Positions 296 through 24,000 are shown, counted from the stretch's first letter. The stretch is DNA of 24,000 bases from Labilibaculum filiforme (GCF_002843315.1 NZ_MVDD01000006.1:1-24000); one strand, 5' to 3'. Notes: generated by a model not told the origin, from the sequence alone. A program made the numbers and translations.

Positions 296-523
296 TTATT
301 CTTCAATATCATCAACAACTATTGAATCTTGAACCTTTTTTAGCATTTCATTTATTCTATCTTTCTCTTCGTCGCTAATATCGCCTTCAAAAGTAGAATC
401 TTCAATTTTAGGGTCTGTTAATAATTCCTTTATCATATCAACATAAGTAAAATCAATAGTCGTAGTTCCTTTTATTAATTGAATTGATATATTATCGTTT
501 TCTTTATTAAAAATTAGTTTCAT
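296..523 (-). CDS. Small, strongly acidic hypothetical protein (75 aa), tightly coupled to the upstream PHP-ATPase gene
   Basis: The ATG at 523-521 lies 2 nt after the TAG (528-526) of the upstream gene. By my count it has about 20 D/E versus 9 K/R. No motif recognised. Confidence 0.55.
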   Translation of the reverse strand: MKLIFNKENDNISIQLIKGTTTIDFTYVDMIKELLTDPKIEDSTFEGDISDEEKDRINEMLKKVQDSIVVDDIEE

Positions 524-525
524 AG

Positions 526-2838
526 CTATTCTTTAAAGTTTTTTAGGTTATACTTCTTTACTCTTTTCTTTATTGAGGGCTTACCACCATCAGTTATTTC
601 AGCAATATAATCAACTATACTCCTAGAGTTCAATTCACCTTCTAACCTGTTGGATTTAATTTCTATTTTTTGGTCGTTATTAATACACAAAACAATATTT
701 TGAGCATCACCTAGCATCGGAATTGTGGCATTGTGAGAAACTAAAATAATCTGTTTCTTGGATTTAATTTTCTTAATTGCGTTTACTAGACCTTCATTGA
801 TATAATTTGTTGCTAAGTTGTCTTCTGGTTGGTCAATAATAATCGGAGCTATATCACCTTCAAAACCTAATATTATATCTAAAAGTACAGATGTTCTCCA
901 ACCCGCACTTAGGTCTTCAAATTTCTTTCCATTCAAGGTAATTATTTTGTAGTTTCTTTTATTTAAAGACTCAAAATCTGTATAAATCCGTTTCTCAAAA
1001 TCATCATAGCCTTTAACTTTAGGACTTTGTCCTTTATATTTTGATTTAAATAAAGATTCAGGACTAATATTATCAAAGGAAAGTATTTTGTCACCTGTCT
1101 TAAGTAGTTTGTTAATTACCTCAAGTAGTTTTGTTTTATTTAGTTCAAAATCGTTTTCAATGAAGAGTTTATGACCCATTGATTCCACAATCTCAGAATC
1201 ACACTTTATCGAATACTTGGATACTTTTTCTAGTATTTTATAAAATTTAGAATAGTTTTGAGAATAAATCTTTACACACAAAATGAGTTTTTCAAAGTTT
1301 TGTCTTTTTGTTTGTTCCTCTGTATTAGCAGACTTTAAATCCATGTCATAACGTTCTTTTTCTGAATCAATGACCTTTTTTATATCTTCTGCAAAACTTG
1401 ATGAATCAAAAGCCTTTACAATTTCCTTCTTAAGCTCTATTACAAGCTTCTCATCGTGGCTAACAAAAGGATTAGATTTCAACTTAGCATCAATTTCGTC
1501 TAAGAACTCATTGTGTTCTTTAAAATCATGAAGAGAATATTTAATTTTTCTTTTTTCCTCTTCAGTAGGTCGGAATTTATCTATAACGTTCTTTTGAATA
1601 TCCTTCCTTGTAATTAAACGCGTTAAATATGGGATGTGACTCAATTCTTCAACTTGCTCTTCCAATATTTTCACACATCCAATTAAATCTGTTAAGTCAG
1701 TTTTTAAACTTAAAAGTCCTTTATTTACTGTTTGCTTAATCGTTTCATCACCAGGAAAAACCTTTCTAACAATCTCAATATTATCAATTTTGTCTTCTGT
1801 CGCATCACTAACCACCTGCATTATATAATTTTGAGATAAATAATGAGGTTTCACCATGGAAGGGTTATTTACATGTAGCTGTTCCACACCAAAAGGAATA
1901 TACTTACTATCAGAAAAATCACCAATTATTTTATTATACAATGAATCAACAAAAAGAGTTTTCCCTGAAGATGAGCCTCCAATAACAACATTAAGACCTG
2001 ACGTTAATTCTGCGTCAATATTTATTTTTTCATTATCTAACTTTACCGATTTAATATGTTCAGACCAAATTGAAGGTCTATCATGTGAGTAAACTAATCT
2101 TGAAGATTCAGACAACGATAACCTTAACCCACTAAACGTAGGTAAAGCAAACATCCAAGTTGGTATAAATGGTTCTGCTTTTTTTGCTTTTGCATTAGGA
2201 TAACTATTAACACTATAATTATCCGTACAAGTTACCAAGTTTACAAATTCATTAATCCCGAGCCGTTTAAAGTAATCTTGTGTTATTTCAAGCTTCGTAT
2301 TACCTCTTGCGGTAAAACCGTCAAACTGATTGTAGTAAATACTTCGCTCAATAGAATTATCAAATTTCACACCTTTTGGAATAGATTTAGGAAATGTTGA
2401 ATGTGATTGACCCCCATGAGGTAAAATAAGAAAATCATAGCTGTCAAAAGTTTTTATAACTTCCTCCAAGGTTGGAATCTTATCGGCAGTACTAACCATT
2501 TTAATAGGATACAATATGTCAAGTTTTAGATTTAATTCATCAATAACATCTTCTGTAATTTCATCGAGATTAAAATAAATATGACAATGATATGGAGGGC
2601 ATTCTGAGTAATTCCTAATGTGCAACTCAACTCCTAAAAGCAAATTCATCACCTTATTCTTTGCCTCTAGATAAGCCCTTTTGTTAATGATATTATGGTC
2701 TGTAAGTGATATTAGATAAGCTGAATCTTTTGAGACACTTTTAATTTTAGTAATCAATGTTTCAATATCATAATTGTCACTCAGGTTATTCGAATCTACT
2801 GAGGTGTGAATATGAAGGTCTAAATATATTGCTTCCAT
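526..2838 (-). CDS. PHP-domain phosphoesterase fused to an ABC/SMC-type (OLD/AAA_15-like) ATPase; Ppl-like candidate defence protein
   Basis: N-terminal PHP-type metal motifs: DLHIHT (res 7-12), LTDHN (45-49), GVELH (69-73), LPHGG (139-143). Walker A is GGSSSGKT (res 287-294, nt 1957-1980). A charged helical insertion of about 350 aa follows. Then come the signature-like LSAGWR (643-648), Walker B IIIDQPEDNL (666-675, nt 814-843) and LVSHN. Confidence 0.8.
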   Translation of the reverse strand: MEAIYLDLHIHTSVDSNNLSDNYDIETLITKIKSVSKDSAYLISLTDHNIINKRAYLEAKNKVMNLLLGVELHIRNYSECPPYHCHIYFNLDEITEDVIDELNLKLDILYPIKMVSTADKIPTLEEVIKTFDSYDFLILPHGGQSHSTFPKSIPKGVKFDNSIERSIYYNQFDGFTARGNTKLEITQDYFKRLGINEFVNLVTCTDNYSVNSYPNAKAKKAEPFIPTWMFALPTFSGLRLSLSESSRLVYSHDRPSIWSEHIKSVKLDNEKINIDAELTSGLNVVIGGSSSGKTLFVDSLYNKIIGDFSDSKYIPFGVEQLHVNNPSMVKPHYLSQNYIMQVVSDATEDKIDNIEIVRKVFPGDETIKQTVNKGLLSLKTDLTDLIGCVKILEEQVEELSHIPYLTRLITRKDIQKNVIDKFRPTEEEKRKIKYSLHDFKEHNEFLDEIDAKLKSNPFVSHDEKLVIELKKEIVKAFDSSSFAEDIKKVIDSEKERYDMDLKSANTEEQTKRQNFEKLILCVKIYSQNYSKFYKILEKVSKYSIKCDSEIVESMGHKLFIENDFELNKTKLLEVINKLLKTGDKILSFDNISPESLFKSKYKGQSPKVKGYDDFEKRIYTDFESLNKRNYKIITLNGKKFEDLSAGWRTSVLLDIILGFEGDIAPIIIDQPEDNLATNYINEGLVNAIKKIKSKKQIILVSHNATIPMLGDAQNIVLCINNDQKIEIKSNRLEGELNSRSIVDYIAEITDGGKPSIKKRVKKYNLKNFKE

Positions 2839-3069: not shown

Positions 3070-3715
3070 ATCACATTTCGTCGAGAGATTATTGGAGTGC
3101 CAAAAATGCCTTTACATTTCGTCGAGAGCTTATTCGAGCAACAAAAACGGCTTTACATTTCGTCGAGAGCTTATTCGAGCAACAAAAACGGCTTTACATT
3201 TCGTCGAGAGCTTATTCGAGCGCCAAAAACGCCTTTACATATTGTCGAGAGTTAATTTGAGCGTCAAAAATGGCATTACATTTCGTCGAGAGCTTATTGG
3301 AGTGCCAAAAATGCCTTTACATTTCGTCGAGAGCTTATTCGAGCAACAAAAACGGCTTTACATATTGTCGAGAGATCATTTTTACGGTCAAATAGGCCTT
3401 TACATATTGTCGAGAGCTTATTCGAGCGCCAAAAAGTTAATTTTCAAGTCGCGAGAGGTCATTCTAGCACCAAAAATGCCTTTACATATTGTCGAGAGAC
3501 TATTTTAGTGCCAAAAACAGCTTTACACATTGTCGAGAGATCATTTTTACGGTCAAATAGGCCTTTACAAATTATTGGGCGATTGTTCGAGAATCGATAT
3601 GACCATTTTCTATTGAGGGAAGCTTATTTTAGGCTGAAAAATGTCTTTGCATATTGTCGAGAGGTCATTTGGATGCCAAAAACAGCTTTACATTTTATCG
3701 GGAGGCATTTTCTAA
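3070..3715. repeat. Tandem direct-repeat array, about 16 units of ~41 bp
   Basis: Unit starts are at 3070, 3111, 3152, 3193, 3234, 3275, 3316, 3357, 3399, 3437, 3481, 3522, 3564, 3605, 3646 and 3687. The conserved core is TTTACATWTYGTCGAGAG. Units 3111, 3152 and 3316 are identical. The 3' units are degenerate. Confidence 0.95.
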
Positions 3716-3922: not shown

Positions 3923-4663
3923 ATGGAACAAATTTTAAGTGATTACACAAGCAAACAGGTAGAAAATATTGCCGAAAACATTTTATTTGAGTTTGCAAAA
4001 ACCGATTGGAGCGCCGATCAATACCTAAGCGAAATTAGCTCGAGACTGTTAAAAAGCCACGGCATTCTTAAAAATTCAATTGGGAAGTTACGCGCTAGTG
4101 ATTTTACCGAAGAACTATCGAAAAAAGATGCCATTTTCGATAGAGATATTATCTGTTTTAAAAAGTTTGTGGATGCAAACAGGTACATGAGAGATGAGAA
4201 CAAAGTGGAGGCTGCGACTAAAATTTGGAAGCTTATTGATGCTCACAATCTTAATCTTTATCGCTTAAGTTACGAAGAGCAAACTTCGTCGGCCACCTCG
4301 CTATTTGCAGAATTAGACAGGCAGGATAACAAGCTTTTAATTGAAGCACTGATTGGAGCAAGTGAGGCTTTAATCTTGGCAAAAAATTCGAACGATGCTT
4401 TAATGAGCACTTATCGAGAAAGTAATGAGGCAAAAGCGACCAAAGAAGATCAAATTGCAGCATCGCTTCAGCGAAAGCAGGTTCGCGATATCATTAATTC
4501 AGACTTATTGCCCTATTTGGAGGTGATGATACGGGTAAATCCAGCTACTTACAAAGGAATTTACCAATCAATAATCAAGTATATCGAAGCGGTAAATACG
4601 AAAGTTCGCTCTAGATCGACAAAAAATGAATCGGAAACTACACTTGAGCTAGAACAAAACTAG
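3923..4663 (+). CDS. Hypothetical protein (246 aa), predicted mostly helical, family not recognised
   Basis: Clean ATG ORF followed by a strong terminator. It has no signal peptide, TM segment or catalytic motif that I can recognise. Confidence 0.6.
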   Translation: MEQILSDYTSKQVENIAENILFEFAKTDWSADQYLSEISSRLLKSHGILKNSIGKLRASDFTEELSKKDAIFDRDIICFKKFVDANRYMRDENKVEAATKIWKLIDAHNLNLYRLSYEEQTSSATSLFAELDRQDNKLLIEALIGASEALILAKNSNDALMSTYRESNEAKATKEDQIAASLQRKQVRDIINSDLLPYLEVMIRVNPATYKGIYQSIIKYIEAVNTKVRSRSTKNESETTLELEQN

Positions 4664-4692: not shown

Positions 4693-4741
4693 AAGACGCA
4701 AAATTTGAAGTAACCTTCAAGTAATGCGTCTTATTTTTTTT
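4693..4741. terminator. Rho-independent terminator between convergent genes
   Basis: The nested stem is AAGACGCA..TTGAAG-TAAC-CTTCAA..TGCGTCTT (4693-4732), followed by a T run (4733-4741). Confidence 0.8.
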
Positions 4742-4791
4742 AGAATGCGGGTTCGTCTCCCGAAAAAGCTTCTTTTATAGCAGAAAATGAT

Positions 4792-5352
4792 TTATTGTTC
4801 CAGTTCCCGTATTATTCGGCATGGGTTGCCTGCAGCAAAAACATCCGATGGAATATTTTTTGTTACTACACTGCCCGCTCCTATTATGCTTCGGTCTCCG
4901 ATTGTTACTCCCGGGCAAATTACTGCACTTCCTCCTATCCAAACATCTTCCCCAATTGTAATTGGCTTGGCAAATTCGAGTCCCGAGGCTCTTTCTTTAT
5001 AATTAACCGGATGCGTGGCTGTATATATTTGCACATTGGGTCCCAGCAAAGTTCTACTGCCAATTGTTACTTTTGCTACGTCTAATATCACGCAATTAAA
5101 ATTAAAAAACACATGGTCGCCCAAGCAAATATTCGAACCATAATCGCAGTAAAAAGGCACTTGTATATCTAAATTATCTCCGGCATTTGGCAATAATTGC
5201 TTCAGTATTTTGGTCCGTTTTTCGCCGGCATCCTCTCTCGAATCATTTAATTCTTTTACAAGTAATCGGGCTTGCAATCGTTCCTCGGCAAGTGCTGCAT
5301 CGGCGGCATGATACAATTCTCCGGCAAGCATTTTTTGTTTCTCTGTTTTCAT
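4792..5352 (-). CDS. maa: Maltose/galactoside O-acetyltransferase (hexapeptide-repeat, left-handed beta-helix)
   Basis: The N-terminal Mac-type segment KQKMLAGELYHAAD..ERLQAR and the C-terminal hexapeptide repeats (IGEDVWIGGSAVICPGVTIGDRSIIGAGSVV..GNPCRII) are collinear with E. coli Maa over the full length. Confidence 0.85.
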   Translation of the reverse strand: MKTEKQKMLAGELYHAADAALAEERLQARLLVKELNDSREDAGEKRTKILKQLLPNAGDNLDIQVPFYCDYGSNICLGDHVFFNFNCVILDVAKVTIGSRTLLGPNVQIYTATHPVNYKERASGLEFAKPITIGEDVWIGGSAVICPGVTIGDRSIIGAGSVVTKNIPSDVFAAGNPCRIIRELEQ

Positions 5353-5366
5353 TTTAGCCCATCCTG

Positions 5367-5924
5367 TTAGTTGCCATTTCTAAAATTATCTACCGGTTGA
5401 TTGCTAAGCGAAAATTCCTCGATAATTCCCTTGCAATTATCGCCTTTTGGCGATTGAATGCCAAATCCGACAGAAATGGATGCATTCATTTCCATTCCAA
5501 AGGCTCTTACGAATCTCCATTTTTTTCCATCCAGAGAATAATGCAATCCAAAAAAATTATTTTTTCTGCTTATTCGTAACCAACAACAATTTCCATCTAA
5601 TAATTCACCATTAGCATCATCCGACCAAGGATCTGTAATCACCGAAACAACATTGTAGCTTTGGTCAACACCCAATTCAACAGCTAATTTTATCCATTTT
5701 CGCGTATCTTGCCTCACCATTAAAAATGCGGCATCGAATGCATTACCACCCATACTTGTAAGCTTAGCAAGCATGGTAAAATCTCCCTTTTTTGTTTGAT
5801 AGTAAAAAGAGGCACTATCCTTCACATATTCTTCATACTTGCAAATAAAATCGGTATTAGCATTCGCATTCAGCTGAAATGAATTGTTTCCTTCGACGAT
5901 ACTGCAAGGATTTAGACTTTCCAT
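5367..5924 (-). CDS. DUF1349-like / concanavalin-A-like lectin-glucanase fold protein
   Basis: The pattern WLRISRKNNFFGLHYSLDGKKWRFVRAF resembles DUF1349 family proteins. Its stop is 14 bp upstream of the maa start. Confidence 0.5.
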   Translation of the reverse strand: MESLNPCSIVEGNNSFQLNANANTDFICKYEEYVKDSASFYYQTKKGDFTMLAKLTSMGGNAFDAAFLMVRQDTRKWIKLAVELGVDQSYNVVSVITDPWSDDANGELLDGNCCWLRISRKNNFFGLHYSLDGKKWRFVRAFGMEMNASISVGFGIQSPKGDNCKGIIEEFSLSNQPVDNFRNGN

Positions 5925-5991
5925 ATTATTGTAATTTTATAAGTTATTCGGTTCCCAATAAATTGCGACAGAGCGTTCGAAATTCTTTACT

Positions 5992-6642
5992 TTACTTCCC
6001 TTCCCACTCGCTGTAAAACTGATCGAGATACACTTGCATAAAAGCATGTCGTTTTTCGGCCATTGCTTTTCCTGCCTGGGTGTTCATCCGATCTTTTAGC
6101 AAGAGCAATTTTTCGTAAAAATGATTAATAGTTGGGGCATCGCTGTTTTTATATTCCTCTTTGCTCATGTTTAGGTTGGGAGGAATGGTAGGATTGTATA
6201 TTTCGCGGTTTTTGTGACCGCCATAGTTAAAGGTTCTCGCAATGCCAATGGCACCAATGGCATCCATTCTATCGGCATCCTGCACCACATCCAATTCGGG
6301 CGATGTAAATTTTTGAGCTTCTTTGCCGCCTTTAAACGAAATGTTGTTGATGATATTCTCTACATGCAGAATGGTCTGCTCATCAACCGAAAGGGAAGAA
6401 AGAAATTCACGGGCCAAACGCGGACCAATTTCCTCATTGCCATCATGAAATTTAGAATCGGCTATGTCGTGCAGCAAAGCACCCAACTCCACCACAAATA
6501 GGTCTGCCTTTTCGCTTTTCGCCAACTCTTTTGCCGATTTCCATACCCGGTAAATGTGCCACCAATCGTGTCCGCCTTCGGCATCGGCAAGGGTTTTTTT
6601 TACGAATTCAACCGTGCTGCTAATAATATTTTCCTGATTCAT
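5992..6642 (-). CDS. HD-domain metal-dependent phosphohydrolase
   Basis: Contains H..HD motifs (GGHDWWHIYRVW, LLHDIAD) and a downstream DADRMDAIGAIG segment. Confidence 0.8.
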   Translation of the reverse strand: MNQENIISSTVEFVKKTLADAEGGHDWWHIYRVWKSAKELAKSEKADLFVVELGALLHDIADSKFHDGNEEIGPRLAREFLSSLSVDEQTILHVENIINNISFKGGKEAQKFTSPELDVVQDADRMDAIGAIGIARTFNYGGHKNREIYNPTIPPNLNMSKEEYKNSDAPTINHFYEKLLLLKDRMNTQAGKAMAEKRHAFMQVYLDQFYSEWEGK

Positions 6643-6760
6643 TTTTATGCTTTTTTGGTATTACGCCCGTGAAGATAGATGTTTTTTGAAATCAGTTCCA
6701 AAATAAGCCTTCCCAGTTTAAAAGAGAAAGTAGAATGAGCTTGTAAAATAAAGCTTGTTT

Positions 6761-7435
6761 TTAATTATTTATGATTGTAGTCGTTGTCAGCATCATTACA
6801 ATTACCACCATTAATGCTTCGTGAATTTCTTTCACCACATTTCCCACTTCAGAACTTAACTGTGCATTTTCAACGATTGTCTTTATTTTCTTTTCATATT
6901 TCTTGGCTCGCTCCTTTCCAAACACTTCTGTATTTAAAGAGCACATGTCTATTAAGCTAATCAGCATACTTTCCTTCATCTCCAAACTACGATCGTTTAA
7001 AAGAATCTCATTTAAGCGTTTTCTTAATTCGTTTTCGGGTTTTGCATTTAGGGTTGGGTACTTATCGTTTGAAAATACCCAAAGAATCTTTTCTTCTTTT
7101 TTGCTTAAGATACCATCAGCAATCAGTTTCTTTAGTGTTTCCTCTTTAATATAGGCTTCTTTGTTTCCGATTATCTCCACCCAAGCTTGCAGACCTCTTT
7201 TCTTTTTTGAGTTTCGTATTTCCTCCATAAAATGATCGAGCAGCATATCATTACAATTCTTATGCGATTTCACCTCTATATTTTTGTCTCGAATCTCAAT
7301 TTTTTCCTGCAAAGAAAGTTCTAAAATGATAGCTCCAGCCATAGCGTATCCAAACGAAAACGAATCGGCAACAAAACTTCCCTTTTCATCGTCGAGTGCG
7401 AGAAGACATAATTGATCCACTAAATTTAAATTCAT
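6761..7435 (-). CDS. GPP34/GOLPH3-family protein
   Basis: LLALDDEKGSF near the N-terminus is typical of GPP34. I place the start at ATG 7435 (MNLNLVDQL..) rather than the ORF-track start at 7501. Confidence 0.65.
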   Translation of the reverse strand: MNLNLVDQLCLLALDDEKGSFVADSFSFGYAMAGAIILELSLQEKIEIRDKNIEVKSHKNCNDMLLDHFMEEIRNSKKKRGLQAWVEIIGNKEAYIKEETLKKLIADGILSKKEEKILWVFSNDKYPTLNAKPENELRKRLNEILLNDRSLEMKESMLISLIDMCSLNTEVFGKERAKKYEKKIKTIVENAQLSSEVGNVVKEIHEALMVVIVMMLTTTTIINN

Positions 7436-7530
7436 TGTATTTCCAGTTTTAAGATTAGACTCAATTTGCGAAAAATAACAAAAAAAATCCCAATAGAACA
7501 ATTAGCTCTACTGGGATTATTTTATAAGAT

Positions 7531-7550
7531 CCACGAGATAAATCTCATGG
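7531..7550 (-). terminator. Possible weak terminator hairpin after the Zn-ribbon gene
   Basis: CCACGAGAT-AA-ATCTCATGG forms a 9-bp stem with one G-U pair on the minus-strand RNA. Only a moderately U-rich tract follows. Confidence 0.3.
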
Positions 7551-7557
7551 CAATTCA

Positions 7558-7800
7558 TTAATAACCGATACCTGCAGCCATAATATTATTTGGATCGAAT
7601 GCATGGCAAGGTGTTACCCCATGTACCATATCGCATTTCGGACAATGTCCTTCAAATTCTTCCATTGTGAAGGTTTCCTTGCAACCATGGCATTCAATAT
7701 CCAAAGGCATTGGCATTAATTGCTCTGAAAAACCCATCATTCTAACTTTATCAACTACCTGTTGTCCGTTCTCGAAACTTCCTGCGCACCCGTCATGCAT
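7558..7800 (-). CDS. Small Cys/His-rich zinc-ribbon protein (80 aa)
   Basis: Contains CHGC..(16 residues)..CPKC plus extra H/C residues. It is preceded by AGGGAGGA (7808-7815) at 7 nt from the ATG. Confidence 0.65.
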   Translation of the reverse strand: MHDGCAGSFENGQQVVDKVRMMGFSEQLMPMPLDIECHGCKETFTMEEFEGHCPKCDMVHGVTPCHAFDPNNIMAAGIGY

Positions 7801-7899
7801 AATTTTATCCTCCCTTTAATTAGGTTTGAAATTGGAGATCTTAGAAATTATCCCATTTCAAAACCTGATTTTATAATTTGTATTAATTTCTAATAAAAA

Positions 7900-7943
7900 C
7901 ACCCCTCTGGCTATCGCCATCTCCCCTCAAAAAGGGAGAACTC
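7900..7943. repeat. GC-rich intercistronic hairpin element, copy A
   Basis: The sequence is CACCCCTCTGGCTATCGCCAT + TCTCCC-CTCAAAAA-GGGAGA. Its reverse complement aligns with 9151-9191. Confidence 0.6.
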
Positions 7944-8023
7944 TTATACTATCATTTGTTTCTTAAATAAGAAACAAATGCCATGCTATTTTTAATTACT
8001 AATTCGTAATTCATAATTACTAA

Positions 8024-9052
8024 TTAGAACCCAATGTCTTCCTTTTTAATGATTTCTCCGTTACGAAGTCTTGTTCTCATGTTTTGAACCACAGCATCCA
8101 TCCGTTCCAAATCCACCAATAGTTTTCTCTCTTCATCGCTGGTCACAATCACTTTGTGAATTCCGCCATTTTTAATTACGATTCGTTTATCGCCCATTAA
8201 AGCCAACATCGGATCGTGAGTTGCCATCAAAACAATCTTTTCTTCACCAATCAATAAATCAAGCGCTTTTTTACGATCGATACCTGCATTCTCAATCTCA
8301 TCAATTAAAATTATCGGCGACTTACTTAAAATAGCAGTATCTGCAATCATTAATGCTCTCGATTGTCCCCCACTCAAACTTGTGATAGGAGTCGTTAATT
8401 CAAATTTTTCTCCGGCAAGCTTATTGGCTTCTTCAATTATCTTCGCAATTACTCCTTCAACATCCTCAACCAATCTACTTTGTGCGTGCAATTCCAGAAA
8501 CTCATAAACAGTTAAATCCATTACAAAGTTCATATTCTGCGATAGCTGAGCTACTAATTTATGCCCTGAGCTCACCCTCCATTTCTTGTCTCCCATTTCT
8601 TCATTCACCAAAATGGTTCGTGAAGTTGGAGTGTCGTTTTGCGCAACCCATTCTATATCGCCCAACAATCTACTTTTACCCGATCCGGTTGGTCCAACAA
8701 TACAAACAATCTCGCTTTTGCTGATTTTTAATTCCCCAAACTGCTCCGCCTCACCCGATTTATTGGTTCCGGGAAGAATAGTGATGCTATGAACGCCATC
8801 CTCCTCATCTTCGCCTAAAAACTCCAACATCTGAGAAATGTAAGTTGTCATCGAAAGCAACAACTGGTCTTTATCAATGGCTCTGTTCTCTACTTCCTCT
8901 TCATCATCCAAAAACTTCAGATAATCAATTAATTTTTCGTCAATCTGCCCATTAACCTGAAGCGTGTTCTCCTCAAAAAATCCTGGAAGAAAAGGGTATT
9001 GCTCGAATAATTCGGCAATAGTCTGGTTTTGTATATCTTGAACTGTAATCAT
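8024..9052 (-). CDS. ABC-type ATPase with ~100-aa N-terminal extension, no cognate permease in the operon
   Basis: Walker A is GPTGSGKS, the signature is LSGGQSRAL, Walker B is ILIDEIENAGID and the H-loop is ATHD. The N-terminal TIAELFEQYPFLPGFF resembles the DUF1858-like head of the 10046-11332 product. Confidence 0.8.
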   Translation of the reverse strand: MITVQDIQNQTIAELFEQYPFLPGFFEENTLQVNGQIDEKLIDYLKFLDDEEEVENRAIDKDQLLLSMTTYISQMLEFLGEDEEDGVHSITILPGTNKSGEAEQFGELKISKSEIVCIVGPTGSGKSRLLGDIEWVAQNDTPTSRTILVNEEMGDKKWRVSSGHKLVAQLSQNMNFVMDLTVYEFLELHAQSRLVEDVEGVIAKIIEEANKLAGEKFELTTPITSLSGGQSRALMIADTAILSKSPIILIDEIENAGIDRKKALDLLIGEEKIVLMATHDPMLALMGDKRIVIKNGGIHKVIVTSDEERKLLVDLERMDAVVQNMRTRLRNGEIIKKEDIGF

Positions 9053-9095
9053 GTTGTCGATTTTGTAACTGTTATATCGTATTCTAACACTCCTG

Positions 9096-9191
9096 GATCC
9101 CCTTGAAAAGGGAGAAAACCCTGATTTTCTTTTCGCATCTTCGAATCGATTTCTTCCCCTTCCAGGGGAAGTGCCGATAGGCCAAGGGGTG
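9096..9191. repeat. GC-rich intercistronic hairpin elements, copies B1 and B2
   Basis: B1 is CCCTT-GAA-AAGGG within GATCCCCTTGAAAAGGGAGAA (9096-9116). B2 is CTTCCCC-TTCCA-GGGGAAG (9153-9171) followed by the tail TGCCGATAGGCCAAGGGGTG (9172-9191). Confidence 0.6.
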
Positions 9192-9222
9192 AACTAAACT
9201 TGATTCTTTCCTTGATGCCTTT

Positions 9223-9930
9223 CTACTTTTCGTCCTTCTTGTCGCTCATATCAATTTTGCGAACATTCCCCATTTGGTAGCTTTCGCCAATTCTGGTTTC
9301 GCCCAAACAATAGGAACAAAGTGCCGATGGCATCGAGAATCTCAATTTTTCTCCAACCAGAGTCTTTATTTCCACTTTCTCATCGTATAACAAAGTGCTT
9401 AGTTCGTAAGCTCCCTGCCCGGTTAATCCATTGATATGCATAATACTTGCGCCCGGATTCACTTGATTTACTCTTGATGCAAACACTTCTCTCTCAGCCT
9501 GCGATACAATATCACCCTTTGTAATAACCACAATATCAGCACTTTTTAACATCGGCCCAATTTTCTTTGGTGTGTTAATCCCACTCAAATTATCGATTAC
9601 ACAAACGGCAGTAATGCTTTTCACATAAGGCGAACAACGATTACACAAACCAGCACTTTCGGTGATTAATAAATCCAAACCTTCCTTAATTCCCCACTGC
9701 GTTACCTCTTCAATATTACTTACAAAATAATGATCGGGACAAAGTGAACCCGACAATCCCTTCTTTACCTTCACTCCTGCCTTTTCATACAAAATATCAT
9801 CATCGGTATAAAGGCAATCAAATTTCACCACACCAACTTCTAATCCACGTTTCTGTAACGAATCGATGGTCTTTAAAATCACTGCTGTTTTTCCTGATGA
9901 AGGAGGTCCTGAAACTGTAACTAAGTTCAT
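9223..9930 (-). CDS. G3E-family (HypB/UreG/CobW-like) P-loop NTPase, putative metallochaperone
   Basis: The P-loop GPPSSGKT, then CPDH, ESAGLCNRC and an NKxD-like ITKGD occur in the order and spacing seen in HypB/UreG. There is an extra C-terminal CSYC motif. Confidence 0.7.
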   Translation of the reverse strand: MNLVTVSGPPSSGKTAVILKTIDSLQKRGLEVGVVKFDCLYTDDDILYEKAGVKVKKGLSGSLCPDHYFVSNIEEVTQWGIKEGLDLLITESAGLCNRCSPYVKSITAVCVIDNLSGINTPKKIGPMLKSADIVVITKGDIVSQAEREVFASRVNQVNPGASIMHINGLTGQGAYELSTLLYDEKVEIKTLVGEKLRFSMPSALCSYCLGETRIGESYQMGNVRKIDMSDKKDEK

Positions 9931-10016
9931 ATCTGATGTTGTTTAAATTCTTAATTAATATTTTCGGGTACGCATTACAACCCGCTCTGTCCTTCGGCTC
10001 CGCAGAAGCTTTCGGC

Positions 10017-10035
10017 ATTCTCTGAAAAAGGAGAA
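10017..10035. repeat. Hairpin element, copy C (degenerate)
   Basis: ATTCTC-TGAAAAAG-GAGAA has the same stem/loop pattern as copies A and B1. Confidence 0.35.
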
Positions 10036-10045
10036 CAGTCAATAA

Positions 10046-11332
10046 TTACTTGCTTGGCGTATAATTCAACGGTCCTAAATTTGCAAACGATTCATCTTGT
10101 ATCGACTTATTAAAAATTCGTTCGCATTTCTTTATTAAAGTCCCAATATCGTTACTATTAATGTAATCCCAACCCAACCACATAAATTTATTCTCTTTTG
10201 GTAATCGGTTGTCAACCTCGGGGTTGATACTTGGAAACAAACCTTGATGCGACAATATCTCACCTACTTTCTTCGATGCAAAGAAATCAACAACATCCTG
10301 GGTTTTCTCTAATTGATCCTTCTTTGTCAACATGAAAATAGGACTAATAATAGCTCCATCCTCTGGCCAAACTGCCACCATTGGTCCTCCTTGCTTTATC
10401 ATCTTGGTAAAGAAATAAGGCATAATGGTAATTGCTGGTCGAACGTTCTTTTTTGTGTGCGATTTTACCATTTGTGCAGGATGCATACTTTCCAACAAAC
10501 AGGCTCCCAAACCTCTTACTCCTTCTTCTCCGTATGCCTTGTAAATATGCAACAACATGGAATTAAACAAATCGAAATCGCTAATTGGCAAACTTACACT
10601 ACGTTTAAATTCGGGCTTAAAAATATCTGCCCATGTGCGAGGAATTGGTCTATCGCCTAGTTCGGCAGTGTTTACCAAAAATACCGCCGGCACTACTCCA
10701 ATCATCGAATAATGTCCTTCCGGATCCTTCAAGGAAATTTCATCGTTATCAAAATCTTTATTCAAACGCTCAAAACCTGTACTATCTTTAAAAACCCCTT
10801 GTTTCTTAAATTTCCCCATCAACTTCTCATCGAAGAATAAATCGAAACCGGCTGAAATAAATATATCTGCTAAATTATCGGTGTTCTCTTGGTTAATCAC
10901 ATCATCAATTAACCAATCCAATCCCATCGAAGCAGCTTTTAAATCGTAAACAATTTCGTTAGCATGCTCCTTTTCGTATTCTTGAATAAAAGCATCAATT
11001 CCTTCAACCAAAGGAATACGAACCGGACAAGGCAATAAACCCTGTACATGTATTGAATCTGCTTTTTGTGCTTTGCTATTTTGATTCAGGTCGCCATCCA
11101 CCTGATTTCTGTTTCCATCAATTCCTTCTATCAATAATGCAGAAAAAGTATCCACATTTAATTTCTTCATTTTCAAAGCCAACTCCAAAGAAAGAGATTT
11201 ACCAAAAATTGCCCTTTTCCCTTCATCCTCCAATTGCTTGAATCCGTTAGAAACAAAAATTTTAATTGTCTCCGGATATTTAGTACAAATGTCAAGCAAA
11301 CTATCTGTGGTCTTAAAATATTGATTCTCCAT
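10046..11332 (-). CDS. Cytoplasmic DUF1858-like N-terminal domain fused to a periplasmic-binding-protein (ABC solute-binding) fold
   Basis: No signal peptide. The N-terminal segment LLDICTKYPETIKIFVSNGF is ScdA_N/DUF1858-like. The remainder resembles Fe3+/polyamine-type solute-binding proteins. The track start at 11338 is a TTG, and I prefer ATG 11332. Confidence 0.6.
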   Translation of the reverse strand: MENQYFKTTDSLLDICTKYPETIKIFVSNGFKQLEDEGKRAIFGKSLSLELALKMKKLNVDTFSALLIEGIDGNRNQVDGDLNQNSKAQKADSIHVQGLLPCPVRIPLVEGIDAFIQEYEKEHANEIVYDLKAASMGLDWLIDDVINQENTDNLADIFISAGFDLFFDEKLMGKFKKQGVFKDSTGFERLNKDFDNDEISLKDPEGHYSMIGVVPAVFLVNTAELGDRPIPRTWADIFKPEFKRSVSLPISDFDLFNSMLLHIYKAYGEEGVRGLGACLLESMHPAQMVKSHTKKNVRPAITIMPYFFTKMIKQGGPMVAVWPEDGAIISPIFMLTKKDQLEKTQDVVDFFASKKVGEILSHQGLFPSINPEVDNRLPKENKFMWLGWDYINSNDIGTLIKKCERIFNKSIQDESFANLGPLNYTPSK

Positions 11333-11393
11333 TTTCAAACAGAATTTTTAATGATTTCCTGATACAAATGTAGAACTCATCGCCTCCAGAAAA

Positions 11394-11409
11394 TGTAACC
11401 AATGTTACA
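11394..11409. promoter_or_regulatory. Perfect palindrome TGTAAC-CAAT-GTTACA, candidate Crp/Fnr-family operator
   Basis: It has 6-4-6 dyad symmetry and lies 62-77 bp upstream of ATG 11332, in a divergent intergenic region. Confidence 0.45.
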
Positions 11410-11602
11410 CATCTTGAAAATAGCTCCCGAAAAACTAAACAAAATGGGAATCTTTACCGTAAAATACCTGACGAAAGAAAGTTTTACAATGATTAGTGGT
11501 TGTTTTTAATAGATTAAAATCGTCCATCCAATTATTTTGAACTATATTTAAATCAGTAAAAATTGATTCTTTTTAGTTCTAATTCCGTAAAAAACGAAAA
11601 TC

Positions 11603-13891
11603 ATGACCAGATACAAAGCTCTATTCATGCAAAAACTAACAAGATTATTTCTTGTTGCATTGCTACTATGTGTTGCTGTTTCCGGTTTTTCTCAAAACGA
11701 TACGGTTCGCATTCTCTCCGATTACCAAATCATGTATTGCTCGGCAACCAATGGCAGCGTTTTGCCTATGCAGGAAATACAACTTCCGTTAGAAGGTCCG
11801 AAAGGAAAAAAATGGTTTGTAAGCTTTTCAGTGAACAATAGTCCTACAATGATTTTAAATGGCGAAGAAGGGATCAACTTTGCGGAATATATCATGTCTC
11901 TCTTTTTTAAGAACACTTCGGGACAGGTAAAAAACTACACCATAGAATTAAAAAAGGCATGGCTGGAAGATTTTACTCCTGTCGTTATTCCTGAAGACCA
12001 AAACACAGCAACAATACAGGTGCTGCCTTTAGCAACTCCCGAGGTGGAAGATTATCACCCAAAAGTAAAAATGAACACTTCGCAACAATATGCTGCAAAA
12101 ATCGGTAAAAATTCGAGCTATTCGGTTTTGGTGCCCGAAGGTGCAAGTTTGCTGAAAAACGAAAGTGTAATTGAGAACAACAGACAAGAACTTAAAATTA
12201 GTATAAAATGGCCGAACCACGAAGCAACCAACTATTTTAAACTGATAGAAACAGATGCTTTTGGCTGTAACAGCGACACTATTTTTGCTGGATTAGAAGT
12301 GGTGAAAAGTTTTCAGGTTACTTTCGACGAAAACAAAACAATCTGCGAAGGAAGTAGCTTAAACCTGTCTCCCATTATCGATTTACCATCTGATTATTCC
12401 TTTTTATGGAGTAGCGGTGAAACCACAAAAGATATTAGCGTGGACAAGGAAGGAAGTTACGAACTTACCGTAACCGATTTGCGCGATAATCAAATTGTAA
12501 AAACTAAAGTAGAAGTTATTAGCCAAGCAAGCCCTGTAATTAATATCGAAGATCATGTGGTGATAGATGATGAAAATCCTATTCTCGATATTTTTGAAAA
12601 AGGAGCTACCTATTTATGGTCCGATGGTTCTAGCGATTCCGAACTTCCAATCACTAAATCAGGCTCCTATTCTGTAAAAGTAAGCTCTAAAAATGGTTGT
12701 TCCTCCACAAAATCATTTAAGGCCAAACTAAAATCGGAACTTTTTGAAATCAACCTTCCGGAAGTAGTTCAAATGTGCGGCAATCAAAAAATCAACTTGA
12801 AACCTGGTTTGTCCATCAATCAGGAATACCGATATCAATGGAAAAATGGAACTTCCGAACCTTCCATTACCATCGACAAGGCTGATGAATATTGGGTTAA
12901 AATTACAGACCCTGATGGTTTTCAGCAAACTGCCTATACGAATGTAATTTATCACCCCAATCCAATTATCGATTTGGGAACCGACATTACCTTATGGGAT
13001 GGGGAAAGTGCAATTTTAGATGCGGGAAATGAAGGAGCCAAATTCATCTGGAATACAGGTGAAAACACCCAAACAATAAATGTAAATAGTGGCGGCGTTT
13101 TTGTGGTGGAAGTAAAAGACACGAACGGTTGTTTAAATAAAGATACGCTTTACGTTACCCACCGAATTGGAGAAAAATTTGGTCTGTTTTTAGGCGAAGA
13201 CCATTCCATTTGTGCAGGAGATTCTCTATTAATTATTCCAACAATAGAAGGAAAACCTACACATCCATTGCAATACAAATGGCTCGGACTAGGGAATACA
13301 ACTCCCGAAGTCTACTTAAAAGACAATGGTCATTATTGCCTGGAAGTAACTGATGCTAATGGTAATACCGAATCGGACTGTTTGGAGATTACTCTTTTAT
13401 CGACTCCAAAAATTGACCTTGGCAAAGACTTAGAAAGTTATGCAAATAAAAAAATTGTTCTCGATGCGGGAACTCCAAATTGTTTCTATAAATGGTCTAA
13501 CGGCGATATCACACAAAAAATTACCGTTCAAACCGAAGGCAAATATTGGGTAAAAGTTACTACCGATTCGAACTGTACCGCAAGCGATACCATCGATGTA
13601 GCTTTTTTAGAGAATTATCCTTTTGTAGGCTTGCCAAAAGCTTTCTCGCCAAATGGCGATGGTCATAACGACAAACTATTTGTTCGAGGAGAGGATGTAA
13701 AAGAAGTAACTTTAATTATTTACAACCGTCTGGGGCACAAACTTTTTGAAACTACCGATGTAAACACCGGATGGGATGGATTTTTTCAAGGTAAGCTGCA
13801 GGATATTGATGTGTATATTTATGTACTGGAAGTAACTTTTTTGGATGGGAAAACACTTACAAAAAAAGGAAACGTAGCGCTTCTTCGCTAA
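11603..13891 (+). CDS. Secreted repeat-rich adhesin-like protein with T9SS type-B (CHU_C / gliding-motility) C-terminal sorting domain
   Basis: The signal peptide is LFLVALLLCVAVSGFSQ. There are six Y/FxWSxGxTTxxIxV..G.Y.V.VTD.NGC repeats. The C-terminus reads FSPNGDGHNDKLFVRG...GWDG...YIYVLEV.... Confidence 0.85.
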   Translation: MTRYKALFMQKLTRLFLVALLLCVAVSGFSQNDTVRILSDYQIMYCSATNGSVLPMQEIQLPLEGPKGKKWFVSFSVNNSPTMILNGEEGINFAEYIMSLFFKNTSGQVKNYTIELKKAWLEDFTPVVIPEDQNTATIQVLPLATPEVEDYHPKVKMNTSQQYAAKIGKNSSYSVLVPEGASLLKNESVIENNRQELKISIKWPNHEATNYFKLIETDAFGCNSDTIFAGLEVVKSFQVTFDENKTICEGSSLNLSPIIDLPSDYSFLWSSGETTKDISVDKEGSYELTVTDLRDNQIVKTKVEVISQASPVINIEDHVVIDDENPILDIFEKGATYLWSDGSSDSELPITKSGSYSVKVSSKNGCSSTKSFKAKLKSELFEINLPEVVQMCGNQKINLKPGLSINQEYRYQWKNGTSEPSITIDKADEYWVKITDPDGFQQTAYTNVIYHPNPIIDLGTDITLWDGESAILDAGNEGAKFIWNTGENTQTINVNSGGVFVVEVKDTNGCLNKDTLYVTHRIGEKFGLFLGEDHSICAGDSLLIIPTIEGKPTHPLQYKWLGLGNTTPEVYLKDNGHYCLEVTDANGNTESDCLEITLLSTPKIDLGKDLESYANKKIVLDAGTPNCFYKWSNGDITQKITVQTEGKYWVKVTTDSNCTASDTIDVAFLENYPFVGLPKAFSPNGDGHNDKLFVRGEDVKEVTLIIYNRLGHKLFETTDVNTGWDGFFQGKLQDIDVYIYVLEVTFLDGKTLTKKGNVALLR

Positions 13892-13966
13892 CAAACATAA
13901 AACTATTTTCTTTATTGGATAAGTTGTGTAACTTTAGACTTGTTATTCACTAATCTTCTCTTTTAC

Positions 13967-14893
13967 ATGCTTGTTGCAAAAAACCTTTACAAATCCTATA
14001 AAGAAGTTCATGCGCTCAATAATGTTTCGCTTTCGGTTCAGGAAGGTGAATTATATGGTTTGTTAGGACCAAATGGAGCGGGAAAAACTACCACAATTAA
14101 TATTTTAACTTCGTTGCTTAAGCCGAATAGCGGAGAAATTCTTTATCATGGGAAATCCTTGTTCGAAAATCTTAACCAATGCAAAAAAATGATTGGTGTG
14201 GTTCCTCAGGAAATTGCGCTTTACGAAGAACTAAGCGCCATAGAGAATTTAAAATTCTGGGGAACTCTGTATGGCATAAAAGGCAAACAACTACAACAAA
14301 AAACAGAAGAGCTTCTTTCTTTTCTGGGCTTATCGGATCGAAAAAATCATAAAATAAAAACCTATTCGGGTGGAATGAAAAGGAGAATTAATATTACTGC
14401 AGCCCTTCTTCACGATCCAAAAATCGTTTTTATGGATGAGCCAACCGTAGGAATCGATCCGCAAAGTAGAAACCTTATTTTCGAAGTCATTCAAGAGCTA
14501 CATTCCCGGGGTCTTACCATGATATATACTACTCATTATATGGAGGAAGCCGAGCGTCTTTGTGATAGAATCGGCATTATTGACGAAGGGAAAATTGTTG
14601 CTGAAGGAAGTCTTGAAAATCTTAAGAAAGCATCTACTATTAAAGAGGAAATTCATGTAAAGTTTACAAACGCTCCAAAAGAAGACCTCTTGAATATTAA
14701 CAATTCGTTTCCTAACCAAGTTTTAGTTCAGGAGAATCAACTGGTTCTATCCACCTCACAAGCCAATACCGATCTCCCAAAATTAATTCAATTGTGTACG
14801 AATGCAAATTTGCCTTTGGAACATCTTCAGGTAAAAAACTTAAGTTTAGAGAGTATCTTTCTGGAATTAACCGGGAAATCCTTACGGGATTAA
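13967..14893 (+). CDS. ABC transporter ATP-binding protein (ABC-2 exporter type)
   Basis: Walker A is GPNGAGKTT, the signature is YSGGMKRR and Walker B is VFMDEPTVGID. I place the start at ATG 13967 rather than the TTG at 13940. Confidence 0.85.
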   Translation: MLVAKNLYKSYKEVHALNNVSLSVQEGELYGLLGPNGAGKTTTINILTSLLKPNSGEILYHGKSLFENLNQCKKMIGVVPQEIALYEELSAIENLKFWGTLYGIKGKQLQQKTEELLSFLGLSDRKNHKIKTYSGGMKRRINITAALLHDPKIVFMDEPTVGIDPQSRNLIFEVIQELHSRGLTMIYTTHYMEEAERLCDRIGIIDEGKIVAEGSLENLKKASTIKEEIHVKFTNAPKEDLLNINNSFPNQVLVQENQLVLSTSQANTDLPKLIQLCTNANLPLEHLQVKNLSLESIFLELTGKSLRD

Positions 14894-14952
14894 AGAAAGC
14901 ATTCCCATTCACTATTTTACTATTCACCATTCGACTATAAACCCCCAAAAGC

Positions 14953-16188
14953 ATGTTTACAATCGCATTGAAAGGCATCCGACAATATTTTAAAGACCGT
15001 ACCGCAGTTTTACTATCCTTATTACTACCAATCGTATTAATTACCATTTTTGCTTTGATGTACGGAGGAATCGGCAAATCTGAAAAATCCCGCCCTATCA
15101 CCCTTTTGTTCACGGATCAGGATAATACCGAACTTTCGAAAGAAGTATACTCCACTTTAAACGAGCAAAGTGGAATACAACTTCTCACCACAAACTATGA
15201 TGAAGCAAGTAAGCTTATTAAGAAAGGAAAAAACAGCGCTGTTCTTGTTCTCTACAAAGGCTTTCAAGATTCGGTGGAGGCCGGAAATAAAATTCCTATG
15301 GAACTGTTTTACGATGAAGCCAAAGAAATTGAAATGGGGCTAATGCAACAAGCTCTATGGTCGAACCTTTTTGGCATTACCATGAAAAAAGGAATGAAGG
15401 GGAAAGTAAATAGCTGGATTCGTGAAAAAAATCCAGACTTAGATACCACTGAACTTCTAGATATTCAAGCCAAAATTGATGAGCAGTTTAGCGATTTCGA
15501 ACAATCGGAAGATTCCGAAACCTTGGAAGAAAACTCAAACTTACCAATGACTGCAATAGTAAGCGAAGAAAAAAATGGGAACCTCGGACTAATTCAAGCA
15601 ATTGCCGGAGTCGCCATCATGATGTTACTATTTAGTGTAGCTGGTAGTGGTGCTTCCCTTCTAAAAGAAAAAGAAGATGGCACTTTTCGCCGGCTATTGG
15701 TCGCCCCTATCTCGCCATCGAGTATTTTATACGGAAAAATGCTATCGACTCTATTTATGGCCATATTACAACTCACCGTAATGTTTTTGTATTCGTGGCT
15801 CGTGTTAGGATTGGATATTTTTATTAACCTTCCGGCTTTACTCTTAATGATTCTCGTTACAGCAATTGCCTGTTCCAGTTTCGGAATTTTTATGGCTTCT
15901 ATCTGCAAAAGTAGAAAACAGGTGGAAAGTTTATCAACTCTGGTAATATTGGTAATTTCGGCACTTGGCGGTAGTATGATGCCTCTTATTTTTATGCCTG
16001 CAATCATGCAAAAGCTAGCCGTTATTTCTGTTAACTACTGGGCAATAGAAGGCTTTTTCGATATTTTCTGGAGACAACTTCCGCTCTCGGAAATTTATCC
16101 CAAACTAATCGTTTTACTGGGAATTGGCATTTTATTTACCACCATTTCGGTGGTTAGTTTCAAAAGAAATTTGCTAAAAATGGTTTAG
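14953..16188 (+). CDS. ABC-2 family transporter permease
   Basis: An N-terminal TM segment is followed by a large ~170-aa loop and then about five C-terminal TM segments. It lies directly downstream of the ATPase gene. Confidence 0.8.
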   Translation: MFTIALKGIRQYFKDRTAVLLSLLLPIVLITIFALMYGGIGKSEKSRPITLLFTDQDNTELSKEVYSTLNEQSGIQLLTTNYDEASKLIKKGKNSAVLVLYKGFQDSVEAGNKIPMELFYDEAKEIEMGLMQQALWSNLFGITMKKGMKGKVNSWIREKNPDLDTTELLDIQAKIDEQFSDFEQSEDSETLEENSNLPMTAIVSEEKNGNLGLIQAIAGVAIMMLLFSVAGSGASLLKEKEDGTFRRLLVAPISPSSILYGKMLSTLFMAILQLTVMFLYSWLVLGLDIFINLPALLLMILVTAIACSSFGIFMASICKSRKQVESLSTLVILVISALGGSMMPLIFMPAIMQKLAVISVNYWAIEGFFDIFWRQLPLSEIYPKLIVLLGIGILFTTISVVSFKRNLLKMV

Positions 16189-16308
16189 AAAGACGGGATT
16201 AAAATTTGAAGAAGGCTGAAGATCTTCGAAAATTAAGACCAATTCATCCCCTATTCTTTGCAAACTGAGAAGAAACAGCTAATATTGAGAGGAAATTAAA
16301 AATTCATC

Positions 16309-16986: not shown

Positions 16987-17077
16987 GTAAGAAATGTGAA
17001 AGAAGATGCTGTAGAAGTATTTCCAAAATAAAAATATTCTTAATTTTGTGCACTGTAAACAAATTGTTCTGTTTTTT

Positions 17078-17091
17078 TTGATCTAAATCAG
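17078..17091. promoter_or_regulatory. FNR/CRP-type box TTGAT-CTAA-ATCAG
   Basis: It has one mismatch to the TTGAT-N4-ATCAA consensus and lies 97-110 bp upstream of the flavodiiron gene ATG. Confidence 0.45.
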
Positions 17092-17187
17092 AGCACATGA
17101 GATCTTAAATTCACATTCCTGCTCTAAATTAGTTGCAACAATGAGATAGAAAGGTCTGAAAATGCTAATTCGACAAAACTTTAAAGA

Positions 17188-18387: not shown

Positions 18388-18410
18388 AAAATTAGTACTC
18401 GATATATTGG

Positions 18411-18439
18411 ACTCCTCCACTTTTGGGGGAGTTTTTTTG
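18411..18439 (+). terminator. Rho-independent terminator of the flavodiiron gene
   Basis: ACTCCTCC-ACTTTT-GGGGGAGT is followed by TTTTTTT. Confidence 0.75.
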
Positions 18440-19630: not shown

Positions 19631-19718
19631 GATTGACCTTTTATGAATCTATTTCATAAATAGGACAACTAATTACCTCCGTTCACTTAAGCAACTCACT
19701 ATTATTTTATCAGAAACG

Positions 19719-23999: not shown

Positions 24000-24000
24000 G

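Follow-up and report, generated by a model that had tools for sequence, protein, structure and literature searches.

Does a small, acidic open reading frame (ORF) that follows closely behind a putative nuclease gene in Labilibaculum filiforme encode a genuine second subunit of that enzyme, and what would such a subunit be for? The question is raised by a 24,000-nucleotide stretch of DNA from this bacterium (GCF_002843315.1 NZ_MVDD01000006.1:1-24000), which was analysed as a whole and is referred to below as the window. At positions 296-2838 it holds two genes, a large one for a predicted fusion of a PHP-type phosphoesterase with an ATP-binding cassette (ABC) ATPase, and a small one for an acidic protein of 75 amino acids. 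An earlier interpretation of the same DNA (the sequence-only reading) had taken the pair for a candidate two-gene defence module, in which a Ppl-like effector "has acquired, or requires" its small partner. From the comparisons described here, the small protein emerges as a second subunit, obligate and conserved, that is encoded together with the large one. What the module does is less firmly established, and the evidence is weighed below against several other explanations.

The case for a second subunit comes from a scan, with one genome for each GTDB species, that returned 544 loci encoding a relative of the large protein. The best 80 of these 544 loci were analysed; all belong to a single clade (clade 1, 43-82% identity), and they span more than eight phyla, including Bacteroidota, Bacillota, Actinomycetota, Pseudomonadota, Campylobacterota, Planctomycetota, Fusobacteriota and the candidate phyla radiation (CPR). 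A hidden Markov model (HMM) of the small protein finds exactly one ORF per locus, always directly downstream of the large gene, in 79 of the 80 loci. The one locus without a hit lies on a contig that stops 1 nt past the large gene, and the pair is thus complete in all 79 informative loci; recurrence of a small acidic ORF beside homologues was one of the checks that the sequence-only reading had proposed for itself. The small ORF is kept even where the large gene is frameshifted. Such conservation, with a homologous small protein behind the large gene in 79 of 80 related loci, excludes chance as the explanation for the ORF in the window.

The two genes are also closely spaced, and their products have diverged together. 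In 73 loci the intergenic distance ranges from -29 to +11 nt with a median of 0; 34 pairs overlap and another 35 have gaps of 0-5 nt. Spacing so close makes translational coupling, and roughly equal production of the two proteins, likely. In the window the separation of only 2 nt that had been noticed earlier is confirmed by the junction itself (see the table), and it suggests co-transcription and translational coupling of the two genes. Pairwise identities of the large and small proteins correlate (Mantel r = 0.81, a value reached in 0 of 2000 permutations), with the small protein diverging faster (mean pairwise identity of 30%, against 49% for the large one). As for the wording "acquired, or requires", a conserved and co-diverging partner is what was found, but "acquired" is too narrow, because a second clade of large proteins, described below, also has a small acidic partner. 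A conserved third gene was considered and rejected: when 1287 neighbour ORFs of the 80 loci were clustered all against all, no third family turned up in more than 10 loci, the next most frequent neighbour family being present in only 10 of the 80. The two-gene module is autonomous, with no third conserved gene.

What kind of protein is the partner? Its homologues are 72-105 amino acids long with a median net charge of -9.5, and 54 out of 58 are net negative; for the window protein, a recount gives 20 D/E and 9 K/R, exactly as had been estimated. The conserved core, MKLxFxK...(I/V)xV...FxYxxMIKxL...E...(S/T)xEE...I..M...I, is followed by a variable, mostly acidic tail. AlphaFold2 models the 75-residue protein as a compact b1-b2-b3-a1-b4-a2 domain with an acidic C-terminal tail (predicted local distance difference test, pLDDT, 83.5). 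Four loci from Bacillota and CPR (L071, L074, L077 and L051) encode a partner that has a basic tail (..RKRKK..) and is not net negative; the existence of such basic-tailed proteins means that the conserved core, not charge, defines the partner family. A Pfam scan of 52 partners gave chance matches only, with no antitoxin or DNA-binding family among them. Searches of PADLOC and NCBIfam gave only marginal matches, PHROGs gave no match, and the best Foldseek hits had E values of 0.5 both in the PDB and among the viral models of BFVD. Database entries for partner homologues are named 'hypothetical' only. None of these searches places the second subunit in a described protein family.

The large protein is 100% identical to L. 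filiforme (Bacteroidota, Marinifilaceae) protein P0001, which carries the NCBI name 'ATPase'. Its N-terminal part can be assigned to the PHP domain, although not by the most direct route. Pfam PHP (PF02811, gathering threshold 26.4 bits) does not match the whole protein at E <= 1 or residues 1-262 at E <= 10, a profile search of PDB sequences with the N-terminus found nothing, and the only Pfam model reported for the large protein is AAA_21, below threshold. Since a direct Pfam match is lacking, the domain was assigned by comparing profiles with full-length relatives that do pass Pfam PHP. Two such relatives, P0277 (28.4 bits) and P0331 (34.4 bits), clear the threshold at their N-termini, and hhalign matches the N-terminal 262 residues (profile A5) to P0277 with a probability of 97.7% (E 2.5e-12) and to P0331 with 95.3%, with the HxH, DH, E and H motifs in register. 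The PHP domain of the sequence-only reading thus fails a direct Pfam search and is recovered by profile-profile comparison with PHP-passing relatives.

The motifs of this domain are DLHIHTS (H9, H11), TDHN (D47, H48), GVELH (E71, H73), YHCH (H84, H86), PHGGQSH (H141, H146) and TCTDNY (D206, Y208). Across 20 homologues with 57-82% identity, H9, H11, D47, H48, E71, H73 and H141 are invariant, and so are K293, LSAGWR, D669 and E672 in the ATPase part. The ligand set had been described as complete-looking; all the residues then named are indeed present and invariant, but the final D-x-H reads D206-N-Y208. Of the metal ligands, H9, H11, H48, E71, H84/H86, H141 and D206 are invariant and the last His is replaced by an equally invariant Tyr, Y208 (codon at window 2215-2217), which is found throughout clade 1 as TCTDNY, whereas clade 2 and the TrlF- and Spaf_1101-like relatives have SDNH or SDAH at this place. 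In the AlphaFold2 model of the large protein (mean pLDDT 74.6), a beta/alpha N-terminal domain precedes an ABC head that is split by helices 364-540; pLDDT is 70-94 for residues 11-140 and <50 for residues 159-249. The latter segment (window 2092-2364) is among the most conserved stretches of the protein, yet it has low pLDDT and a shallow alignment; it is dense in invariant residues and contains SIYYNQFDGFTARGN, GINEFVNLVTCTDNY and PTWM.A.PTF.GLRLSLSESSRL. Its low pLDDT may come from the shallow alignment, or this region may fold only with a ligand or with the partner.

The remainder of the protein has the features of an SMC/Rad50-like ABC ATPase: a Walker A motif, a signature, a Walker B motif, a head split by a coiled coil and a matching fold. 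Foldseek aligns the head with Smc2, Smc3, JetC, AriA, Rad50, RecF and RecN (E 1e-6 to 1e-3), and the insertion, modelled as helices 364-401, 436-455, 463-504 and 506-540, with the coiled-coil stumps of SMC and Rad50 heads. Invariant residues of the N-terminal lobe are G287, S289, S290, G292, K293 and Q336. The C-terminal lobe carries the signature LSAGWR (643-648), the Walker B motif IIIDQPED (666-673), the H-loop SHN (701-703) and a conserved C-terminal TDGGKPSIKKRVKKYNLK. An ABC-type C-terminal part had already been proposed, with K293 as its Walker A lysine and with LSAGWR, and the invariance of these motifs together with the fold matches bears this out. The Walker B assignment to D669 and E672 needs amendment: both residues are present, but the canonical position of the catalytic Glu is taken by Q670, and E672 lies two residues beyond it. 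Q670 (codon at window 829-831) is invariant and aligns to the Glu of the Rad50 DEPT motif, so the canonical catalytic Glu right after the Walker B Asp is not present in the large protein. The DQPE sequence is superfamily-wide: 31 of 33 TrlF-like proteins have it, and so do the TrlF and Spaf_1101 examples from plasmids. In engineered ABC ATPases, an E-to-Q change traps the ATP-bound dimer. From a Gln at the catalytic-Glu position, that is, a natural 'EQ' state, we infer a nucleotide-binding switch or sensor head instead of a fast hydrolase; this sequence feature suggests slow hydrolysis or a nucleotide-sensing role.

Table. The two genes, their junction and the predicted domains of the large protein, with positions in the window
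Feature	Position	Strand	Remarks
Large gene, 770 aa: PHP phosphoesterase and SMC/Rad50-like ABC ATPase (predicted)	526..2838	minus	Stop codon TAG at 526-528
Small gene, 75-aa acidic partner	296..523	minus	Stop codon at 296-298
Gene junction TAG-ct-ATG, 2-nt spacer	521..528	minus	Sequence GAA TAG ct ATG
PHP-type metal phosphoesterase domain, residues 1-262	2053..2838	minus	Invariant motifs; hhalign
ABC head, N-terminal lobe, residues 263-360	1759..2052	minus	Walker A GGSSSGKT (K293); candidate Q-loop SQNY (Q336)
Helical, coiled-coil-like insertion, residues about 361-542 (~180 aa)	1213..1758	minus	AlphaFold2 helices; SMC/Rad50 alignment
ABC head, C-terminal lobe, residues 543-770	529..1212	minus	Invariant columns; Rad50 alignment; Ppl/TrlF model matches

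How close, then, is the large protein to Ppl, to which it had first been likened? Against the curated NCBIfam models it scores 178.3 bits for TrlF (NF045780, cut-off 350), 86.4 bits for Spaf_1101 (NF045781, cut-off 475) and 56.6 bits for Ppl (NF042955, cut-off 1000). Because it falls below the curated cut-off of all three families, we treat it as belonging to a separate clade, the clade 1 introduced above. The match to the Ppl model NF042955 is confined to residues 636-761, and the PADLOC model of Ppl (PDLC02208) similarly aligns residues 640-761 with its positions 774-890 of 894 (E 1.6e-14). Among the models of PADLOC v2.0.0, the release used here, the module is not represented, and the best full-system match is a partial Ppl. 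The relationship at the level of the superfamily is nevertheless full-length. An hhalign comparison of profile A1 with TrlF-like proteins gives a probability of 100% and E 6e-52 over positions 3-773 against 11-855, with the PHP domain, Walker A, helical insert, signature, DQPE and C-terminus collinear. HMMER with the family profile collected 3646 cluster representatives at E <= 1e-10, whose scores form a compact clade at >= 665 bits, then a gap, and below the gap many proteins of 770-860 residues with about 115-175 bits, aligned over positions 6-770. According to these profile comparisons, the large protein is a full-length member of the superfamily of PHP plus Rad50/SMC-like ABC ATPases that also contains Ppl, TrlF and Spaf_1101. 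The label "Ppl-like" therefore describes a real relationship to Ppl, TrlF and Spaf_1101, but a distant one, with all three curated models below cut-off.

The same superfamily contains a second group of short proteins that also come with a small partner. This group, clade 2, was found on metagenome contigs (loci L088-L094, L100-L105, L133, L136 and L147) and on viral contigs (L178 and L191-L194), five of its pairs lying on predicted viral contigs. Its large proteins have 785-841 residues, score at least 430 bits on profile A6, and share with clade 1 the domain order and a full-length profile match. They differ from clade 1 in reaching only about 130-175 bits on the clade-1 profile, in having the canonical SDNH motif in place of the Tyr-containing one, and in having longer partners. 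In 15 of 15 examples the large gene is followed by an acidic ORF of 92-111 residues with 18-28 D/E against 6-16 K/R, at gaps of -23 to +10 nt. These proteins go undetected by the clade-1 partner HMM; their elements are ordered as in the clade-1 partners. Homology of the two sets of partners was considered and could not be demonstrated (hhalign E 0.036).

The long forms of the superfamily (860-1000 residues) are organized differently. Those examined were plasmid-borne TrlF (IncC, IncF, Listeria and Staphylococcus), the Spaf_1101 of a Bacillus plasmid, and TrlF-like copies from metagenomes and viruses; in none of them was a small partner seen, and the small-protein HMM finds nothing downstream of them. 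What follows these long genes is a terminator, nothing, or an AlbA_2-type gene, and on the IncC plasmid trlF is embedded in a type I restriction operon in the order hsdR-trlF-AlbA_2-hsdS-AAA-hsdM. The idea that the partner is a detached domain of the long Ppl and TrlF forms was tried and rejected, with hhalign of the partner alignments of both clades against the 33 TrlF-like proteins and profiles A1 and A6 giving E values of 0.2-0.6. In the hhalign alignments, TrlF owes its extra length to several short, scattered insertions, which argues against domain fission.

The surroundings of the clade-1 pairs were surveyed through the 149 nearest neighbours from 42 loci, association being judged from counts of neighbour families with no formal genomic background. 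Among these neighbours, phage integrases recur eight times, HD-CE/HATPase_c_3 conflict proteins four times and TrwB/TraG coupling proteins three times; methylase and specificity subunits of type I systems and type III and type IIG restriction enzymes recur as well, as do PglX, mad3, LmuB and PDC-S05. A type I HsdR gene lies directly upstream of the pair in loci of the L052 type, type III Mod and Res genes lie directly upstream in loci of the L027 type, and large serine recombinases occur in several loci. Just downstream of the pair in six loci is a gene for an AlbA_2 (Schlafen), HATPase_c_4 and winged helix-turn-helix protein, annotated as 'RNA-binding domain-containing protein'. This AlbA_2-type gene was seen near clade-1 pairs in L015 (12625-13977), L016, L047, L048 and two more loci, and also downstream of long TrlF-like genes in L083 (7002-8165), L112, L150 and L166. 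In one further locus, on a 6.5-Mb genome contig (L081), the flanks hold ORFs without a Pfam match (1491 and >1865 residues), a PNP_UDP_1 nucleoside phosphorylase, DUF4325 and DUF7003, and this neighbourhood looks like an uncharacterised defence or conflict island. Plasmid and phage records contained no clade-1 member at >= 80% protein coverage, and none was found in IMG/VR. In the window, the pair has a GC content of 29.9% compared with 36.9% for positions 4701-24000, in line with the earlier remark that it is richer in AT than the genes to its right. Conserved housekeeping operons, which the sequence-only reading had named as the setting that would speak against it, are not what was found: the neighbourhoods vary, and genes of mobile elements and restriction-modification systems abound in them. 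Judged by gene neighbourhoods, the pair is horizontally mobile and tied to restriction-modification genes and mobile elements.

What could such a module be for? It probably acts as an anti-phage or anti-mobile-element nuclease. The fuller proposal, that the locus is a mobile operon for a predicted two-subunit PHP-ABC nuclease that has its small subunit as a gate and serves in defence against phages or mobile elements, is the one we favour and regard as reasonably likely. Useful guidance is offered by Ppl of Escherichia coli, which restricts T7 and is countered by gp130 of Bas63 (PMC11482910). According to a 2026 review, Ppl is a 3'-5' exonuclease acting on single-stranded DNA (ssDNA) that is inhibited by nucleoside triphosphates on its PHP and NTPase domains, and it is switched on once phages have depleted nucleotides and produced 3'-OH ends (PMC12904381). 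By analogy, the PHP domain of the present module would be the effector that degrades invading DNA, and the DQPE ABC head would serve as a switch, working through nucleotide-dependent dimerisation or the sensing of nucleotides or DNA ends, rather than as a fast motor. The gate would be the small acidic protein, bound to the large subunit in stoichiometric amounts, most likely in the form of an inhibitor or a nucleic-acid mimic on the DNA-binding surface, from which it could be displaced by phage or plasmid DNA or by a phage factor. Alternatively, the small protein might be a specificity or sensor subunit. A gate appears to be the simplest role because of the close or overlapping spacing of the genes, the usually strong acidity of the partner and its faster evolution.

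Several observations weigh against a gated defence nuclease. The readable right-hand neighbours in the window are ordinary genes. The large protein has no direct Pfam PHP match, and it misses the curated thresholds of Ppl, TrlF and Spaf_1101 alike. With the last PHP His changed to Tyr in clade 1, catalytic competence is not guaranteed. A partner without a detectable fold relative leaves its role unconstrained, and the 4 of 58 partners that are not net acidic argue against a DNA-mimic mechanism based purely on charge.

A more specific version of the gate would make the partner a host-encoded mimic of nucleic acid or of the tail of single-stranded DNA-binding protein (SSB), serving as a safety catch built into an immune nuclease; we consider this version unlikely. 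The acidic surface and tail would then sit in the site at which the PHP-ABC enzyme binds ssDNA or SSB, and in some lineages the tail has an almost perfect SSB tip (...DDLPF) at its end. The partner would be dislodged by genuine 3' ssDNA ends or by phage replication intermediates coated with SSB, and the long single-gene relatives, Ppl and TrlF, would gate in cis. To our knowledge, mimics of DNA or SSB are otherwise known mainly as anti-defence proteins of phages. The resemblance to SSB is a weak lead for a mimic or an adaptor. Endings such as DDLPF, EEIPF or DFPF occur in 5 of 138 distinct partners, in both clades, against 9 of 1287 background ORFs (Fisher p 0.008); they were seen in L015/L016, L038, L088, L091 and one database protein. 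A terminal Phe by itself is not significantly enriched among the partners (p 0.06), and the window partner ends in VVDDIEE, without an SSB-like tip.

These same endings bear on the possibility that the partner is an activating or targeting subunit, either a sensor of phage proteins or an adaptor that reaches SSB-coated ssDNA or SSB-interacting proteins through its SSB-like tail. A partner that evolves faster than its enzyme is what would be expected of a subunit facing phage factors, the excess of SSB-tip-like endings is in keeping with an adaptor, and the reported trigger of Ppl likewise involves ssDNA 3' ends. On the other hand, the SSB-like tip is present in <4% of the partners and absent from the window copy, and the enrichment in terminal Phe stays at the p value just given, so that this possibility, too, appears doubtful to us.

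Another possibility is an addiction module akin to toxin-antitoxin systems, in which the PHP-ABC protein would be the toxin and the acidic protein a labile antitoxin, and which would stabilise integrative elements or plasmids rather than serve primarily in immunity. It would account for two tightly coupled genes, for a partner that is small, fast-evolving and usually acidic, for the frequent position of the pair beside integrases, serine recombinases and conjugation genes, and for the abundance of TrlF relatives on conjugative plasmids (319 of 496 plasmid records). Yet a small gene in the downstream position is an atypical order for most type II toxin-antitoxin systems, none of the 52 partners scanned has an antitoxin-family or DNA-binding domain, and clade 1 is missing from plasmid and phage records at the coverage stated above. 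Moreover, stand-alone Ppl, TrlF and Spaf_1101 persist without a partner, which means that this enzyme class is not intrinsically lethal. We give an addiction module a low probability, noting that it and a defence function are not mutually exclusive. A housekeeping complex for DNA repair or end processing, analogous to SbcCD/Mre11-Rad50 with PHP in place of the Mre11 phosphoesterase and with a small accessory factor, is highly improbable, for although the head resembles Rad50, RecN, RecF and SMC and some homologues are automatically annotated as 'DNA repair ATPase RecN', the taxonomic distribution is patchy despite high identity across phyla, synteny is not conserved, the neighbours are restriction-modification and mobile-element genes, the GC content is atypical, and, of the relatives that have names, the closest are one anti-phage protein and one gene that sits within a restriction-modification operon.

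In the window, the left flank of the pair reaches only 295 nt beyond the small gene, and the genes to the right encode DUF6261, acetyltransferase, DUF1349, HD, GPP34 and ABC transporter proteins. The 1.08-kb gap between the start of the 770-residue gene and the next gene (3923..4663) holds about 11-15 tandem copies of a 41-bp unit (consensus ACATTTCGTCGAGAGCTTATTCGAGCGCCAAAAACGCCTTT; window 3071-3700, plus strand), with higher-order periods of 123 and 165. The lack of spacers shows that this is no CRISPR array, and an Rfam scan of the window, array included, gave no match. The array was not seen elsewhere in the window or in 200 other fetched loci, and its absence from all of these 200 led us to reject it as a part of the module.

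What is new here is that at least two large short-form clades of the PHP-ABC superfamily appear to be obligate two-gene modules, with a spread over many phyla and hundreds of genomes, each representing one species. Such loci would at present be missed or mis-called by the tools used for defence annotation, as with the partial Ppl of PADLOC v2 and the 'ATPase' of NCBI. They offer a testable contrast between a short enzyme with a partner and a long enzyme alone, and this contrast bears on how this class of nucleases spares self DNA and on what activates it. If the partner were indeed a mimic acting as a safety catch, it would belong to a widespread family of mimics of DNA or SSB that cells themselves encode for the self-control of immunity.

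As far as we know, PHP-ABC nucleases such as Ppl and TrlF have been treated as single-gene systems, and Ppl is the sole member with a reported mechanism. Ppl itself is said to have been described by Gao and colleagues in 2020 as a single-gene anti-phage system. It has in common with clade 1 an N-terminal PHP domain fused to an ABC-type NTPase and a C-terminal lobe with IDQPED and a tail. It differs in that the alignment is limited to the last ~120 residues, in the length of its models (about 880-894 positions, compared with 770 residues), in retaining the last PHP His, which is Tyr in clade 1, and in being encoded by a single gene, whereas clade 1 always has a second one. TrlF, the best-scoring named family, shares with clade 1 the PHP and DQPE ABC architecture, the association with restriction-modification systems and mobile elements, and the recurrent adjoining AlbA_2 gene, but it has 860-1000 residues with several small insertions and no small partner downstream. 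The full texts that were searchable gave no account of a small partner to a PHP-ABC protein, the ABC-ATPase classification of Krishnan et al. 2020 lying outside their coverage.

More broadly, the module can be compared with PARIS AriA-AriB, Wadjet JetABCD, Lamassu and Gabija. These systems, like clade 1, have an SMC/Rad50-type head with a coiled-coil insertion, and in them, too, an ABC ATPase controls a nuclease and there are separate effector or accessory subunits. Unlike in any of these, the PHP nuclease of clade 1 is fused in cis, and the separate subunit is a protein of 75 residues with no similarity to kleisins, AriB, GajB or LmuA/C. As far as homology can tell, the module resembles Ppl and TrlF in its way of working while standing outside their curated families; it does not constitute a new category, but it is widespread, cleanly defined and experimentally tractable.

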